Positions 46,046-50,407 of a DNA stretch of 64,000 nt are shown piece after piece (position 1 is the first letter of the stretch; each line of letters opens with the position of its first letter). Source of the stretch: Candidatus Zixiibacteriota bacterium (GTDB taxonomy: Bacteria; Electryoneota; B3-LCP). A program made the translations under genes and the position numbers. The stretch lies in the NCBI GenBank assembly GCA_003599535.1, contig QZKQ01000071.1:4454-68453 (forward strand), written 5' to 3'. The notes beneath the pieces are model-generated. The model was not told where the DNA came from. It ran no database searches and was given only the letters and a program-made list of their open reading frames with translations.

Positions 46046-46901
46046 CCCCGCCCACGTCCGCGGCCCCCGGCCCTTGAAGGAGCTGGGGCAGCACTTCCTG
46101 GTGGACGAGGAAGTCGCCGCCCGCATCGTCGCCGCCCTGGAACTGCGCTGGGAGGAGCGGGCCATGGAGATCGGCCCCGGCCGCGGGGTGCTGCTGCGCT
46201 TCCTGCTGAAGGCCGGCAGCCGCATCACCGCGGTGGAGGTGGACCCGCGCATGTTGCGCACCCTGGAGCGGGTCTTCGGCGGCCACCCCGGGCTGAACCT
46301 GGTGCACCAGGATTTCATGCAGTTCGACCTGGCCGGCTGGCTGGAGAGCGACCCCGCTCCCGCGCGCATCGTGGGCAATCTGCCCTACTACCTCTCGAGC
46401 CCCATCATCTTCCGGCTGTTTGAAGCGGCCGGAGAGCTGGCCCGGAACGACCGCTTTCCCCTGACTACGGCGGTGCTGATGCTGCAGAAGGAGGTGGCCC
46501 AGCGGCTGGCGGCCTCGCCCGGCGGGCGCGACTACGGCGCCATGACCGTATTCCGGGCCCTGGTGGCCGAGGCGGAACTGCTCTTCACCGTGCCGCCGGA
46601 CGCCTTCCTGCCGCCCCCCAAGGTGACCTCTGCGGTGGCGCGGCTGCGTTTCCATTCCCGCCGCCGCTACGACATTCCCGACCCGGCCCTGTTCGGCCAG
46701 CTGGTGCACCACGTGTTCGCCCAGCGCCGCAAGATGCTGAAGAACACCCTGGGGACCTTCCCCTGGGCGCGCCCCGGCTGGGAACGGACCCCGGACTTTG
46801 ACTTCACCCGCCGCCCCGAAGAGCTGGGAGTGGAAGAGTTTATCAAGCTGTATCAGTTGGTGGTGGAGAAGAACGCTTCGCCGACTCCCTCCCAGGAATG
46901 A
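46038..46901 (+). CDS. rsmA: 16S rRNA dimethyladenosine transferase
   Basis: LGQHFL, EIGPGRG, GNLPYY, MLQKEVAQR, FxPPPKV. Confidence 0.95.
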   Translation: MRSPAHVRGPRPLKELGQHFLVDEEVAARIVAALELRWEERAMEIGPGRGVLLRFLLKAGSRITAVEVDPRMLRTLERVFGGHPGLNLVHQDFMQFDLAGWLESDPAPARIVGNLPYYLSSPIIFRLFEAAGELARNDRFPLTTAVLMLQKEVAQRLAASPGGRDYGAMTVFRALVAEAELLFTVPPDAFLPPPKVTSAVARLRFHSRRRYDIPDPALFGQLVHHVFAQRRKMLKNTLGTFPWARPGWERTPDFDFTRRPEELGVEEFIKLYQLVVEKNASPTPSQE

Positions 46902-46972
46902 ATTCCTGGGCTGCTATCATGCTACCCGCTGATGATTATAAAGTAATTGATACCCCCTAACATGCCCAGGCT

Positions 46973-47193
46973 GTGGTGGCATGCTTCTGGTTCCCGGATG
47001 GTGGGGAGAAGGGTTGTTTTCCTCGCTTCTGAATGACCTGACCACGACCTCCGGCCAACGCCTCTGCCATCCGGGAAACGAAGCATGGGGGGCCAGGGTC
47101 CAGGGGGTACATGCTTCGTCTCCCGACCGGTTCAGGGGGGAGATCACGCGAGATAATCCGGTGTCCGGTCAGGAGCCAGAAGCATGCCACCAC
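46973..47193. mobile_element. Non-autonomous REPIN/MITE-like element (two inverted long-loop hairpins)
   Basis: Ends GTGGTGGCATGCTTCTGG / CCAGAAGCATGCCACCAC and inner motifs match the RAYT flanks. Confidence 0.85.
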
Positions 47194-47343
47194 CCGGACA
47201 CCAAATCAGCGCATTAATTTCTCAATGACCATAAGTGGGTGCTCGGGTAGGGTGGAGGCAGGGACAACAGGCAAACCCATGCAAATTGCCCGAAATAAGT
47301 TTCCAACTTTTCAACTTTCCAACCTTCCGACTTTTATTCTGCT

Positions 47344-48702
47344 TTGACCGACGAAACCCTAAATACCCTCCGCCAGCACATCGAGAACCTGGTGGAGTCC
47401 GGCGAGGTCGAAGAGCTGCAGCAGGTGCTGGCCGGGCTGCATCCCTCTGACATCGCCGATCTCTTCCCCCGGCTGGGGCGGCTGGAGCAGAACTTCATCT
47501 GGGATCTCCTGCCCGAGGAGGTCACCCCCGACGTCCTGGTCGAGCTGGACGAAGCCTTCCAGGAGAAGGTGCTGGACACCCTGACCGAGGGCGAGATCGG
47601 GCGGCTGATTGACGACATGGAGTCGGACGACGCCGCCGACGTGGTGGGCGCCCTGGACGAGGAGAAGGCCCAGAAGGTCCTGAACACCCTGGACCTGGAA
47701 GCGCGCCGCGAGATGCGCGCCCTCCTGGCGTACGAAGAGGACACCGCCGGCGGCATCATGGCCCTGGAGGTGGCCGCCGTCCGCGAGACCGACAACGTGG
47801 ATCAGGCCATCCACCGGCTGCGGGAATTCCACGAGACGGAGGGGGTGGAAGATATCTACACCGTGTACGTGGTGGACAACGACGGGGTGTTGAAGGGGGC
47901 CGTATCCCTGCGCCAGCTCATCCTGGCCAAGCCGGAGGTCCCGGTACGCGACCTGATGGAGCCCAACGTCATCTCCGTGGATACCTCCACCGACCAGGAG
48001 GAGGTCGCCACCCTGGTGCGCAAGTATGACCTGCTCTCCATCCCGGTGGTGGACGACCACCACCGACTCATGGGCCGTATCACCGTGGACGACGTGGTGG
48101 ACGTAATGGCCGAGGAGGCCGAAGAGGACCTGTCCATCATCGCCGGCACCGGCGAGGAGAACCCGGGGGAAACCTCGGCCCTAAGGACCTCCCGCGAACG
48201 CCTTCCCTGGCTCCTGACCGGACTGCTGGGCGGCCTGGTATCGGCGGTGGTGTTGCAGCATTTCCAGGAATCCCTGCTGCAGGTCATCGCCCTGGCCTTC
48301 TTTGTGCCGGTCATCACCGCCATGGGCGGCAACACCGGGATCCAGTCCTCCTCCATTGTGGTGCGCGGGCTGGCCACGGGGGAAATCGGTCTGGGCGACC
48401 TCCTGCCCCGCATCTGGAAAGAGTTGCGCGTGGCCCTGCTGAACGGCCTGGCCCTGGGCCTGGTGCTGGCTACCATCGTGGCCCTCTGGCTGCAGCAGCC
48501 CCACCTGGGCATCCTGATCGGCCTAATCCTGTTGCTGAACATCCTGATCGCCACGGTGCTGGGCGCCACCGTGCCCATCATCCTGAAGCGGCTGGATTTC
48601 GACCCGGCGCTGTCCATGGGCCCCTTTGTGACCACCGCCAACGACATCATCGGGCTGCTGATCTACCTGGGATTGACGGCCACGTTTTTATCGCTGCAGT
48701 AG
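47344..48702 (+). CDS. mgtE: Magnesium transporter
   Basis: HPSDIA, MESDDAAD, CBS pair, RLPWL, GGNTGIQS, GPFVTT.ND. Confidence 0.95.
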   Translation: MTDETLNTLRQHIENLVESGEVEELQQVLAGLHPSDIADLFPRLGRLEQNFIWDLLPEEVTPDVLVELDEAFQEKVLDTLTEGEIGRLIDDMESDDAADVVGALDEEKAQKVLNTLDLEARREMRALLAYEEDTAGGIMALEVAAVRETDNVDQAIHRLREFHETEGVEDIYTVYVVDNDGVLKGAVSLRQLILAKPEVPVRDLMEPNVISVDTSTDQEEVATLVRKYDLLSIPVVDDHHRLMGRITVDDVVDVMAEEAEEDLSIIAGTGEENPGETSALRTSRERLPWLLTGLLGGLVSAVVLQHFQESLLQVIALAFFVPVITAMGGNTGIQSSSIVVRGLATGEIGLGDLLPRIWKELRVALLNGLALGLVLATIVALWLQQPHLGILIGLILLLNILIATVLGATVPIILKRLDFDPALSMGPFVTTANDIIGLLIYLGLTATFLSLQ

Positions 48703-48743
48703 GAATCAATATGTTTCAATAAGAAATTCGCGGGCCCAAGGGG

Positions 48744-49540
48744 GTGGTGGCATGCTTCTGGTTCCCTTATGGCTTTCTGGCAGTTCACTGAGTTCCAAAT
48801 GCCAGAACGGTCCAATGGCGTACTGATTTCCTTTGAATCCATAGCAGCCATAAGGGAAACGAAGCATGCATGAAGAGGCCAGATACAAGCGCATCAAACA
48901 TTATCATGAACCCGGACAAGCGCATGAGTTGAGTTTTTCCTGTTTTCAGAAACAAAGCCTCTTATCTAATGATCAATTCTGTCAATGGTTTATTGAAAAT
49001 CTTACTTCAGTGCGGGCGAGACACCAATTTGATCTGTGGGCGTATGTTGTCATGCCCAATCACGTCCACCTGTTGATTCGACCTTCCGGAGAAGTATTGA
49101 GTATTGGTCGCATCCTGTGGGACTTGAAGTTACCGGTAAGTATCCGTGTAGTGAATTACTGCAAAGCCCATGCTCCTGGAATATTGCAACGAATGCTGGA
49201 TATTAATAAGACAGGAACGATTACTTACCGTTTCTGGCAACGTGGTGGCGGATATGATCGCAACATGATTCATTCTGAGATCATCCGCGCTTCCATCGAG
49301 TATTTGCATCTCAACCCTGTGCGCAAGCATCTGGTGGAAAGACCGGAAGATTGGCCCTGGTCCAGCGCCGGATTTTACACCGGCAAGGATACTTATCCGA
49401 TTCGGATGGATGTTGAGACCCTGCCGTACAATATGCCGATTCGATAAGGTTGTGGAACATGCTTCGTCTCCCGACCGATTCAGGTTTATTCTCCATGAGA
49501 TGGTATGGTGCCCGGTCGGGAGCCAGAAGCATGCCACCAC
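48744..49540. mobile_element. RAYT locus bounded by inverted long-loop REP hairpins
   Basis: Left hairpin 48744-48868 and right hairpin 49458-49540 flank the transposase; lower GC than host genes. Confidence 0.88.
48866..49447 (+). CDS. REP-associated tyrosine transposase (Y1 HUH)
   Basis: AYVVMPNHVHLL, FWQ, EYLHLNPVRK.LV..PEDWPWSS. Confidence 0.92.
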   Translation: MHEEARYKRIKHYHEPGQAHELSFSCFQKQSLLSNDQFCQWFIENLTSVRARHQFDLWAYVVMPNHVHLLIRPSGEVLSIGRILWDLKLPVSIRVVNYCKAHAPGILQRMLDINKTGTITYRFWQRGGGYDRNMIHSEIIRASIEYLHLNPVRKHLVERPEDWPWSSAGFYTGKDTYPIRMDVETLPYNMPIR

Positions 49541-49645
49541 ATTTCGCAACACTGGGCTGAAATTGTGGGAGCCACTACGCGAGGCACATACATTTATTGA
49601 ACTTGTTTCTTACCGAGCATCACTCATTTCCAATCACTTTGCCTC

Positions 49646-50407
49646 ATGCCCTTATTCAAAACCGAAGCGGTCATCCTGCAGAGCCGCAAATTCAGCGAAA
49701 CTTCCAAGATCCTGGTCGCCTTCACCCGGGAAAAGGGGAGGATGTCGGTCCTGGTCAAGGGGGGGCGCAAGGGGACCAAGGGATTTGCCGGCGGGCTGGA
49801 GACGCTGAACCGGGTGGAGATGCAGATCTACCACAAGGGGGGACGGGAGCTGCAGAACTTCAAGTCCTCCGACCTGGTGGATGGCTACGCCGAGCTGCGC
49901 AAGGACTTGAAGCGCACGTACACCGCCCTGTCCCTGGCGGAAGTGGCCGTGCGCGGCACGGAGACGGAAGATCCCCACGCCGACCTCTACCGGGCGCTGG
50001 TGGAGACCCTGGAGGTGCTGGATCGCACCGGGGAAAACCCCTGGTCGGTGCGCTGGAACGGGCTGCTGCGCTTCTGCCGGGAGCTGGGCTTCGGCATGGC
50101 CCTGCAGGAGTGCCGCCAGTGCGGATCGAAAACCGGCCCGGTGAAGGGCTTCGACCTGGAGCGCGGGGGGTTCCTGTGCGGCGACTGCAAGCTGGAAAAA
50201 CCGCACCAGATGCCCATGCCGGGGGAGTCCTGGGGGGTGCTGCGCTTTCTCGACACCTGCCGTCCCGAAGCCGCCGCCCGCATGGCCGTCCACGCCGACG
50301 CGGGCCGGCGCATCGAAGCCCTGTTCAACGCCTACTTCCGCTACCATCTGCCCGGCCTGCGGGGGTTCGACAGTTGGAAAATGTTGCCGCAACTGTACTG
50401 GGAATAG
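49646..50407 (+). CDS. recO: DNA repair protein RecO
   Basis: TEAVIL..KFSETSKI...FTREKG; CRQC...LCGDC zinc finger. Confidence 0.93.
   Translation: MPLFKTEAVILQSRKFSETSKILVAFTREKGRMSVLVKGGRKGTKGFAGGLETLNRVEMQIYHKGGRELQNFKSSDLVDGYAELRKDLKRTYTALSLAEVAVRGTETEDPHADLYRALVETLEVLDRTGENPWSVRWNGLLRFCRELGFGMALQECRQCGSKTGPVKGFDLERGGFLCGDCKLEKPHQMPMPGESWGVLRFLDTCRPEAAARMAVHADAGRRIEALFNAYFRYHLPGLRGFDSWKMLPQLYWE

Follow-up and report, generated by a model that had tools for sequence, protein, structure and literature searches.

A REP-associated tyrosine transposase and unusually long REP hairpins beside mgtE in a Candidatus Zixiibacteriota genome

In a 64,000-nt stretch of the draft genome of a Candidatus Zixiibacteriota bacterium (assembly GCA_003599535.1, contig QZKQ01000071.1, positions 4,454 to 68,453; this whole stretch is hereafter the window), a short gene lies between two mutually inverted hairpins just downstream of mgtE, and the same two hairpins recur upstream of mgtE without the gene. 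The locus raises the question of what sort of element exists both with and without a gene, and of whether its large hairpins carry variable DNA inside conserved, structured ends, as a first-pass annotation had supposed. We are fairly confident that the arrangement is a REPtron, that is, a domesticated Y1 (HUH) REP-associated tyrosine transposase (RAYT) flanked by its own repetitive extragenic palindromic (REP) sequences and accompanied by gene-less doublets equivalent to REPINs (REP doublets forming hairpins). Its unusual feature is that the REPs keep the tag, foot and bulge of their family on an expanded apex, at two to three times the normal length, and this is a lineage-specific expansion of the apex and not captured cargo.

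The RAYT gene and its dispersed hairpins

The gene (48866..49447, + strand) encodes a 193-aa protein that passes the NCBIfam model NF047646 for REP-associated tyrosine transposases (84.1 bits; cutoff 80) and does not pass the IS200 transposase model NF033573 (14 bits; cutoff 55). Its HUH motif is H66-V-H68 and its catalytic tyrosine is Y146, within a Y..NP motif; H66, H68 and Y146 are invariant in all 25 aligned sequences, the RAYT and 24 homologues. A profile of the RAYT alignment found E. coli TnpA-REP (PDB 4er8) as its best solved relative, with an E-value of 8.9e-10 over two stretches, and ISDra2 TnpA as a weaker PDB match (2e-3). In the protein collection, 1098 of 1134 candidates were relatives at E <= 0.001, the best at 54-55% identity; those named by organism are mostly from Planctomycetota assemblies, and some are already named REP-associated tyrosine transposase. 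The gene appears to be single-copy in the source genome (G000; a 3.77 Mb draft in 140 contigs that is 93.75% complete and might lack a second copy), where tblastn gave one full match, together with three paralogues of 29-30% identity on contigs C50, C132 and C111 (C-numbers denote contigs of this genome).

Around the gene, the left (L-type) hairpin occupies 48744..48868 (+ strand, 125 nt, fold z -5.96) and the inverted right (R-type) hairpin 49458..49540 (- strand, 83 nt, z -5.14). Sequence, repeat finder and NF047646 thus agree with the order of hairpin, RAYT and inverted hairpin that had been annotated at 48744-49540. The start codon (48866-48868) sits in the 3' arm of the left hairpin, so that read-through RNA would be expected to mask it. 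In the gene-less twin, an L hairpin (46973..47087, + strand, 115 nt, z -3.89) and an inverted R hairpin (47110..47193, - strand, 84 nt, z -4.47) are separated by a 22-nt spacer of type S1, GGGGGCCAGGGTCCAGGGGGTA, which stands in place of the RAYT gene (47088..47109, unstranded). All four hairpins consist of a GTGGTGG tag, an 8-bp basal stem CATGCTTC/GAAGCATG, TGG opposite AC, a YTCCC/GGGAR stem, a further stem and a long interior. In the twin's L hairpin, this order of tag, basal stem and bulge continues with TTCCC/GGGAA, the inner stem GGATGGTGGGG/CTCTGCCATCC and a 55-nt interior, and its R hairpin has the usual tag, stem and bulge followed by CTCCT/GGGAG and GACCGG.../...CCGGTC stems. The inner stems do differ in the way first described, with TTATGGCT/AGCCATAA (repeat I16) in the L hairpin of the RAYT unit and GGATGG/CCATCC also present. 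In the output of the repeat finder, the terminal inverted repeats (I1-I4) match at 95-96% over 22-25 nt, and the inner ones (I8-I12) are 15-16 nt long. All four hairpins fold as drawn, with z-scores of -3.9 to -6.0. We used 200 shuffles for single-hairpin folds, 100 for 13-mer counts and 500 for arms and pairing; none of the 200 folded as well, and none of the 100 reached the seven window matches (four exact) of the 13-mer GGCATGCTTCTGG at up to two mismatches, the shuffle mean being 2.6.

The hairpins form a dispersed family. A search of the source genome with GGTGGCATGCTTC, a 13-mer spanning tag and stem, gave 34 copies (reversed control, 0), so that the window copies are not the only ones, and the hairpins inverted around the RAYT share their tag and foot with these. 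Pairing 8-bp arms were found in 29 candidate hairpins, of which 28 were kept; a candidate on C15, with neither tag nor bulge, was dropped from the family. The 28 comprise 15 of L type (TTCCC/GGGAA) and 13 of R type (CTCCC/GGGAG), and C19, an R-type copy with one stem change, was added to the R alignment to give n = 14. They are 81-137 nt long, of which 32-73 nt lie outside the paired stems. Two degenerate copies with short apices also persist (C47 and C102:7914).

Doublets predominate, as 26 of the 28 hairpins belong to doublets or to the RAYT unit; the exceptions are a solo R on C105 and a copy on C32 with a degenerate partner, and two further copies, the single, double-footed C19 and C84 with its left half deleted, lie outside the 28. 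The central junction of the doublet, L followed by 22-25 nt and an inverted R, was sighted 16 times on 15 contigs. Many family copies outside the window lie at contig ends, and 10 of the 16 junctions are within about 310 nt of one, so that a locus may in some cases have been counted at both of its ends; a fair count of doublet loci is at least about 12. The spacers fall into five sequence types, and L interior, spacer and R interior vary jointly between subfamilies, which indicates that the doublet behaves as a single unit. From this pattern, the copied unit appears to be the doublet of L, 22-25-nt spacer and inverted R. Doublets with unrelated flanks are present on C46 and C32.

Other repeats were seen in the same genome. 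A perfect 18-nt palindrome, in which tag and half-stem are joined to their complement (GTGGTGGCATGCCACCAC), stands isolated amid unrelated sequence at C121:3389-3406. Around the elements there are also other repeat families, namely GCCATGCTTCGTCGTGGCC-type hairpins and CAGTGTCATTGCGAGG ... CGAAGCAATCTCAAGCTCCG units, located at C29:7154, at C11:17810 and in the flanks of the C36, C95, C86 and C133 copies. Some of these could be owned by the RAYT paralogues on C50, C132 and C111.

Both window elements are intergenic, within a co-directional rsmA-mgtE-recO array, and bracket mgtE (47344-48702; Pfam MgtE, MgtE_N and CBS), with the gene-less twin upstream and the RAYT unit downstream. The three genes are adjacent and co-directional in all six loci recovered from sister genera, where the rsmA-mgtE gap is 14-149 nt (445 nt here). 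Between the aligned ends of mgtE and recO there are 30-38 nt in four of these loci, compared with 946 nt here; in the other two, where the mgtE alignment ends early, the gap is 72 and 194 nt. As both host spacers are short in sister genera, we regard the two elements as additions in this lineage. The mgtE-recO spacer is a trough in GC content (0.41-0.51, against 0.63 for the genome), and the low-GC island at 48700-49700 is broader than the hairpin-bounded unit, since besides the RAYT and its two hairpins it takes in the 105 nt that separate the right hairpin from recO.

Base and apex of the hairpins

To place the family among its relatives, we drew on eight other genomes of the same family (G001-G008), none of the same genus. 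The 13-mer occurs 29 times in G005, 17 in G002, 12 in G003, 9 in G006, 7 in G008, 2 in G004, once in G001 and not at all in G007, and all controls gave 0. Among these eight related, non-independent genomes, the two without a close RAYT (none in G007; best E 2.6e-8 in G001) have 0 and 1 tags, and the six with a close RAYT (E 1e-36 to 2e-71) have 2-29. A query of the relatives' contigs with the single protein produced 38 pattern matches, none of them confirmed, and the RAYT relatives were found with an alignment query. The nearest one, in G003 (53-54% identity), is flanked by 44-nt REPs with the shared base; housekeeping neighbours are 53-65% identical between these two genomes, indicating that the RAYT is roughly as diverged as the genome.

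The REPs sampled from three of these sister genera are short and mostly solitary. They number 22, from 20 regions chosen among the 13-mer matches of G005, G002 and G006, and their length, taken from GGTGG to GAAGCATG, is 35-43 nt in all but one, which measures 61 nt. The pattern GGTGG-CATGCTTC-TGG, a variable paired stem of 5-7 bp, a 3-4-nt loop and [AG]AC-GAAGCATG or a close variant is shared by 21 of the 22, and in one G006 REP the basal stem is followed by AGG in place of TGG. Scanning metagenomes with a 15-mer gave at least 118 stretches, and 9 of the 80 fetched carry this hairpin type, at 29-55 nt, none of them long. The judgement that the REPs here are atypically long therefore stands, as 81-137 nt compares with 35-43 nt in 21 of 22 sister REPs and goes beyond the published descriptors cited below. 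Among the family genomes compared, only the source genome has apices of 43-100 nt. The bulged foot is thus old and kept across genera, with an apex that varies everywhere.

More distant RAYTs extend the comparison. Flanking inverted repeats were found at 64 of 71 loci with both flanks, with a median of 37 nt and a range of 14-116, a length that is a misleading proxy for REP length, since it mixes single REPs with dimers; for the source genome it returns only a 23-nt arm, and hairpins were therefore inspected directly. The 27 hairpins spanning 55-160 nt beside distant RAYTs are mostly REP dimers. At four loci from other assemblies (L018, L033, L039 and L044), however, single REP hairpins reach 62-78 nt, with 30-35 nt of variable loop on a 16-bp stem, CATGCTTTCGCGGCCC/GGGCCGCGAAAGCATG. 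This RAYT clade therefore contains another case of REPs with long apices, which are not unique to the source genome. The suggestion of an atypical REP/REPIN class is accordingly borne out in that a RAYT has its own dispersed family of long REPs, and weakened by the hairpins at those four loci.

The interiors of the hairpins do not resemble cargo. One left interior recurs in eight copies at 90-100% and, more distantly, in a ninth, the window twin, and one right interior is common to at least eight; the interior of the L hairpin on the RAYT side is AT-rich and matches only itself in the genome. The interior classes share short motifs and differ by insertions and deletions, and there are no other matches to the interiors in the genome. 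Searches of phage and plasmid collections (blastn, distant setting) gave no match to the armed twin or to the RAYT unit. Captured cargo was rejected on these grounds: what had been seen as variable DNA carried in conserved ends has the conserved structured base, and its interiors are shared within subfamilies, related by insertions and deletions and without matches outside the family, which speaks against foreign DNA.

The inner stem, for its part, seems to be kept paired. In the L hairpins (n = 15), 95.3% of the cells of the three-part stem are paired, compared with 39-55% when the 3' partner is slid, and seven pairs are altered on both sides (12 cells), values that none of the 500 shuffles reach. 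The compensatory changes include GG/CC to TT/AA and G:C to T:A at the fourth pair, and in the L copy on C46 the second stem has T:A in place of C:G. The basal 8-bp stem is invariant in the L hairpins, and the only change to it in the R hairpins is one-sided, C to T in C19. The same tag, foot and bulge are thus found across genera whose housekeeping proteins are 53-79% identical, on apices of about 15 to about 100 nt. This constancy of the base under a varying apex argues that the enzyme may read the hairpin base only. The recognition-type base shared by these REPs comprises a GTGG tag directly 5' of the 8-bp stem, the TGG/AC bulge and the second stem. By analogy with E. coli TnpA-REP (PMC3479197), the RAYT would bind tag, foot and bulge on single-stranded DNA; the apex, unread, would be free to grow and drift, and the inner stem would be held in its paired state, through compensatory change in the L type. 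The sister-genus comparison supplies ready-made substrates for such base-only recognition.

Several results sit badly with this picture. The Pfam Y1_Tnp score of the RAYT is 21.3, below the cutoff of 23. The GC content of the gene is 46%, compared with 63% for the genome and 62% for the doublets, so that the gene may have had another history than most of the copies; RAYT genes also fall below their loci in GC content in all five relatives examined, by a smaller margin than here. In the R hairpins (n = 14), the stems are 99.2% paired and no pair is changed on both sides, so that the compensatory change first annotated is confirmed for the L hairpin only, and the R hairpins say nothing either way. 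When the armed twin is folded whole, it forms a four-way junction (-65.9 kcal/mol, z -4.0), with perfect pairing of the outer arms, inner arms paired around the 22-nt spacer and the interiors as branches. Because pairing between left and right outer arms yields an equal bulge, the asymmetric bulge, which is present in all four window hairpins as annotated, is not in itself proof of local hairpins; that it is a real feature of a local hairpin is proved only by the solo short REPs of the sister genera.

The bulge itself is also often interrupted. It has the plain TGG/AC form in 15 of the 28 hairpins, and the remaining 13 have an extra 12-22 nt there; counted on the alignments, an insertion of this length exactly at the bulge occurs in 10 of 14 R and 3 of 15 L hairpins (alignment columns 16-37; copies on C2, C36, C45, C51, C61, C62, C63, C95, C122, C126, C138 and C19). 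The insertions form one or two 4-bp mini-hairpins, such as CCCCGCAGGGG and CCACTGCGTGG, and recreate GTGGTGG beside the inner stem in ten R copies and one L copy (C63); the L copies on C45 and C51 read ATGG at that position. Such copies should be crippled if the enzyme reads the bulge, yet they are the commonest R form. Most doublets with a bulge-inserted R keep the plain bulge in their L partner.

The enclosing palindrome and the spread of the doublets

Most gene-less copies have conserved, mutually inverted arms outside GTGGTGG, ending in ATGGTCAT and ATGACCAT. The annotation of the twin at 46973-47193 was right about two hairpins 22 nt apart, but the repeat extends about 40 nt further on each side into such arms. 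The left one (46932..46972, + strand), of a diverged ATGGTCATAAAGTAATTGATAT type, was recognized from the arm pattern at C5:51385 with three mismatches and from the flank alignment; its last 8 nt are the tail CCCAGGCT (+ strand), directly 5' of the tag. The right one (47194..47232, + strand) ends in ATGACCAT, and an identical arm type flanks the C63 copy. The two are mutual inverted repeats, with an alignment score reached by 16 of 500 shuffles. The arms also occur without a doublet, as a 76-nt palindrome with the apex ...ATG CCACCAC AGCAT..., at seven sites with the standard junction (C11, C12, C23, C86, C87, C95b and C128), and two more palindromes lacking the doublet (C94 and C137) share a second junction, ...ATGCC CATGCCACCAC.... 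The filled form exceeds the empty one by CCCGGCC, GTGGTGG, L, spacer and R up to GAAGCATGC; ATGCC stands at both junctions, and one CCACCAC tag is left in the empty form. This bears on the claim that there is no target duplication, which holds at the tag boundaries, although CATGCC is present immediately to the left of the twin and again within its right end. What is new here is that a 76-nt palindrome encloses the doublets in most cases and that palindromes lacking them keep one CCACCAC tag; with and without its doublet, this nested palindrome offers candidate junctions of insertion or excision.

The filled and empty forms are mixed across the genome. A filled copy, C95a, shares extended flanks with the empty C86 and C95b, from which we infer that the doublet was gained or lost among paralogous sites. 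As the outer arms are only about 30 nt long, we used a 3-base marker, CTACATG/CGTAATG, in place of an arm tree. Filled and empty forms alike carry it, and it is combined with each of the two main spacer types, S1 and S2; all four combinations of marker and spacer call for repeated gain or loss or for recombination, and the marker, which shows reassortment, has no power to tell recombination from repeated insertion. Beyond the arms there are further short inverted repeats that differ by locus and a recurrent hairpin motif upstream, and the whole is a nested mosaic reminiscent of bacterial interspersed mosaic elements (BIMEs).

To our knowledge, the copying of REPs or REPINs by a RAYT has never been shown, the evidence consisting of in vitro cleavage by one E. 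coli enzyme and of three excision reads in one Pseudomonas. Against this background we propose, tentatively and as something that may well prove wrong, that doublets enter and leave beside CACCAC, which equals the tag, in the apex of the 76-nt palindrome. Messing 2012 reported that the third and fourth bases of GTAG specify the C|T cut in E. coli (in the portion of PMC3479197 on cleavage); if the GTGG guide worked as GTAG does, cuts would fall at C|C. The doublet would bring a 5' tail and leave one tag behind, and the doublet-less joint would read ...ATGCCACCAC..., with joining at ATGC|CACCAC. The placement of the junction at ATGC|C fits the expected C|C cut, with only five registers possible. 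A fuller version, to which we give slightly less credence still, has a RAYT that would read only tag, foot and bulge, so that a 42-nt REP could have grown into branched modules of 80-137 nt; doublets would integrate at CACCAC in the palindrome apex, bringing the 5' tail and one tag, with the second tag completed from the target, and the filled, empty and partly deleted copies would reveal C|C cuts made in vivo. If this were true, a natural series of filled and empty sites would make the mechanism of REPIN spread directly testable. We treat the junction model as a testable lead and not as a result, its mechanism being drawn by analogy; should it fail, an ordinary REPtron with unusually long hairpins remains.

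Some of the evidence is at odds with enzymatic insertion. Derivatives are joined at short direct repeats, on C65 (8 nt), on C38 (GCATG, 5-6 nt) and also on C84 and C19, and the twin-less forms could have arisen by replication slippage between ATGCC repeats and not by the enzyme; slippage across the long palindrome would account for the derivative junctions and the standard empty form alike. The RAYT unit is without outer arms (score reached by 138-312 of 500 shuffles). The DNA of the twin was not found in 40 related genomes, eight of the same family and none of the same genus.

These features lead to the best surviving alternative, which we nonetheless hold to be improbable: that the doublets are passengers, the 76-nt palindrome or a larger nested mosaic spreading by recombination, another enzyme or segmental duplication after the doublet entered one copy once, and the RAYT having no part in the present copy number. 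Most doublets do share outer arms in fixed orientation, the doublet-less palindromes are dispersed too (both the seven with the standard junction and the two loci with the second), C95a, C86 and C95b have extended flanks in common, further inverted layers lie beyond the arms, and the RAYT unit is armless. A single entry is harder to square with the doublets in unrelated flanks (C46 and C32), with the solo R on C105, with the occurrence of the arm marker and S1/S2 in all four combinations, which calls for repeated gain or loss or recombination, and with the fact that the doublet's tag is the very sequence retained in the twin-less form.

Elements of the IS200/IS605 type have a Y1 HUH enzyme and hairpin ends, insert beside a short specific sequence without duplicating it, and have both end hairpins read on one strand. 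It is very unlikely, in our view, that the 797-nt unit is an autonomous insertion sequence of this type with the twins as miniature derivatives like palindrome-associated elements. It resembles such elements in its Y1 HUH enzyme, its hairpin ends and the lack of target duplication; the twin also looks like the unit with its gene swapped for 22 nt, and there is a low-GC island of about 1 kb where the relatives have a spacer of 30-38 nt. It is unlike them in having a single gene copy, in failing the IS200 model while passing the RAYT model, and in that its two hairpins are mutually inverted and not co-oriented; in addition, tag and foot are shared with REPs of seven sister genomes, which fits long residence. 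Finally, that the hairpins are host-selected RNA or DNA structures (terminators, mRNA stabilizers or protein sites) with a selected paired apex and a merely historical RAYT link is barely credible, for although those in the window are intergenic in a co-directional array, and the family members show compensatory change in the L inner stem and have many flanks resembling terminator stems (e.g., AAAAGCCCCAT...ATGGGGCTTTT), the elements contain no Rfam family at threshold and no terminator-like site, their copies adjoin unrelated genes, their interiors are wholly different between subfamilies, and sister genera are without such hairpins at these sites.

Minor features surround the twin. A small hairpin, CCCAGGAATGAATTCCTGGG, overlaps the rsmA stop codon at 46891-46910, and similar ones (CCCGGGAATGAATTTCCGGG, CCCGAATAAATTCGGG) stand 20-50 nt beyond the outer arm in C2, C63, C23 and C137, at times inverted on the opposite side. 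The only Rfam match was one to Acido-Lenti-1 at 46891-46923, with 24.6 bits where the gathering score is 37, and the scan for promoters and terminators gave no promoter site within the elements either. Just upstream of mgtE, at 47296-47340, runs a series of CAACTTT-like 7-base units (TTTCCAACTTTTCAACTTTCCAACCTTCCGACTTTT); 7-base arrays also lie 3' of other element copies, as GATGCGA repeats (C95, C86) and as GAACTAA repeated eight times (C11).

Comparison with known systems

The E. coli REPtron, or REP-BIME system, was reportedly described by Ton-Hoang in 2012. As in the published description of that system and of its enzyme (TnpA-REP, PDB 4er8; PMC3479197), we find a single-copy Y1 HUH enzyme between inverted REPs of its own, an imperfect hairpin that is bulged in mid-stem and has a 5' GT[AG]G-type tag directly at its foot, and two REP subtypes paired in inverse orientation (Y and Z there, L and R here) with no target duplication. 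It differs from that description in its tag, GTGG(TGG) and not GTAG, and in hairpins of 81-137 nt, not about 35, with apices of 33-73 nt. Protein identity to TnpA-REP is also low, with a profile match over two stretches.

A second point of comparison is the REPINs of Pseudomonas fluorescens SBW25 in the account of Bertels and Rainey (2011, PMC3116915). There, too, the unit of replication is an inverted REP doublet, singlets are far rarer than doublets, one long hairpin is predicted for the doublet, and a single-copy RAYT is associated. This REPIN type of pairing is found in our twin, whose minimum-free-energy fold pairs left with right outer arms and left with right inner arms (z -4.0). In that account, an excision starts from the conserved sequence on the left and spares the final ~6 bp of the right-hand REP, much as the twin-less form here keeps CCACCAC. 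In contrast to what is described for SBW25, where REPs are spaced by 71 or 110 bp, the doublet spans 221-263 nt and exists in about 12-16 copies and not hundreds. Its REPs are long branched hairpins in their own right, and the interior of one half is unrelated to that of the other; excision here is deduced from paralogous copies and not seen in reads.

Published descriptors of REPs place the family more exactly. Table 1 of Di Nocera 2013 gives loops of 2-20 nt (PMC3733652), and in the descriptor of Quentin 2018 GTAG or GTGG precedes the stem by 0-2 nt, 7-20 bp of basal stem are followed by a 1-3-nt bulge and a second stem, and the loop has 2-5 nt (PMC6006769). The family agrees with the latter in everything but size, with GTGG at 0 nt, an 8-bp basal stem and the TGG/AC bulge in 15 of 28 hairpins. 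A small size (20-40 bp, with a loop of 2-5 or 2-20 nt) is found in 21 of the 22 sampled sister-genus REPs and not in the source genome, where loops of 33-73 nt exceed both published ranges, and searches that use such descriptors would miss long-apex families. Other traits recur in what these two papers report of their families (PMC3733652, PMC6006769), among them GTGG tag variants, a 'long hairpin' type and tail-to-tail heterodimers with conserved spacers, and the C19 copy is comparable to the 'double-foot' REPs that Quentin 2018 attributes to central deletion (PMC6006769). The TIRtron/TIRYT arrangement as outlined in Di Nocera 2013 (PMC3733652), a RAYT-like gene between long terminal inverted repeats that have no relation to REPs, was ruled out, as the repeats flanking the RAYT are REP hairpins with the family tag and foot. 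Full-text searches with motif strings gave only unrelated primers, and no paper was found that combines Zixibacteria with 'extragenic palindrom'; the supplementary tables of Di Nocera 2013 and Quentin 2018 may list related families.

The closest parallel to the nesting is the report in Di Nocera 2013 of REP dimers within long palindromes of A. variabilis and H. neapolitanus (PMC3733652). In those two species no palindromes without a dimer were found, unlike in the present genome, where twin-less enclosing palindromes exist. The system is of a known kind, a REPtron with REPINs, and its variation on that kind is the long apex and the L/R heterodimers that lie mostly inside another palindrome.

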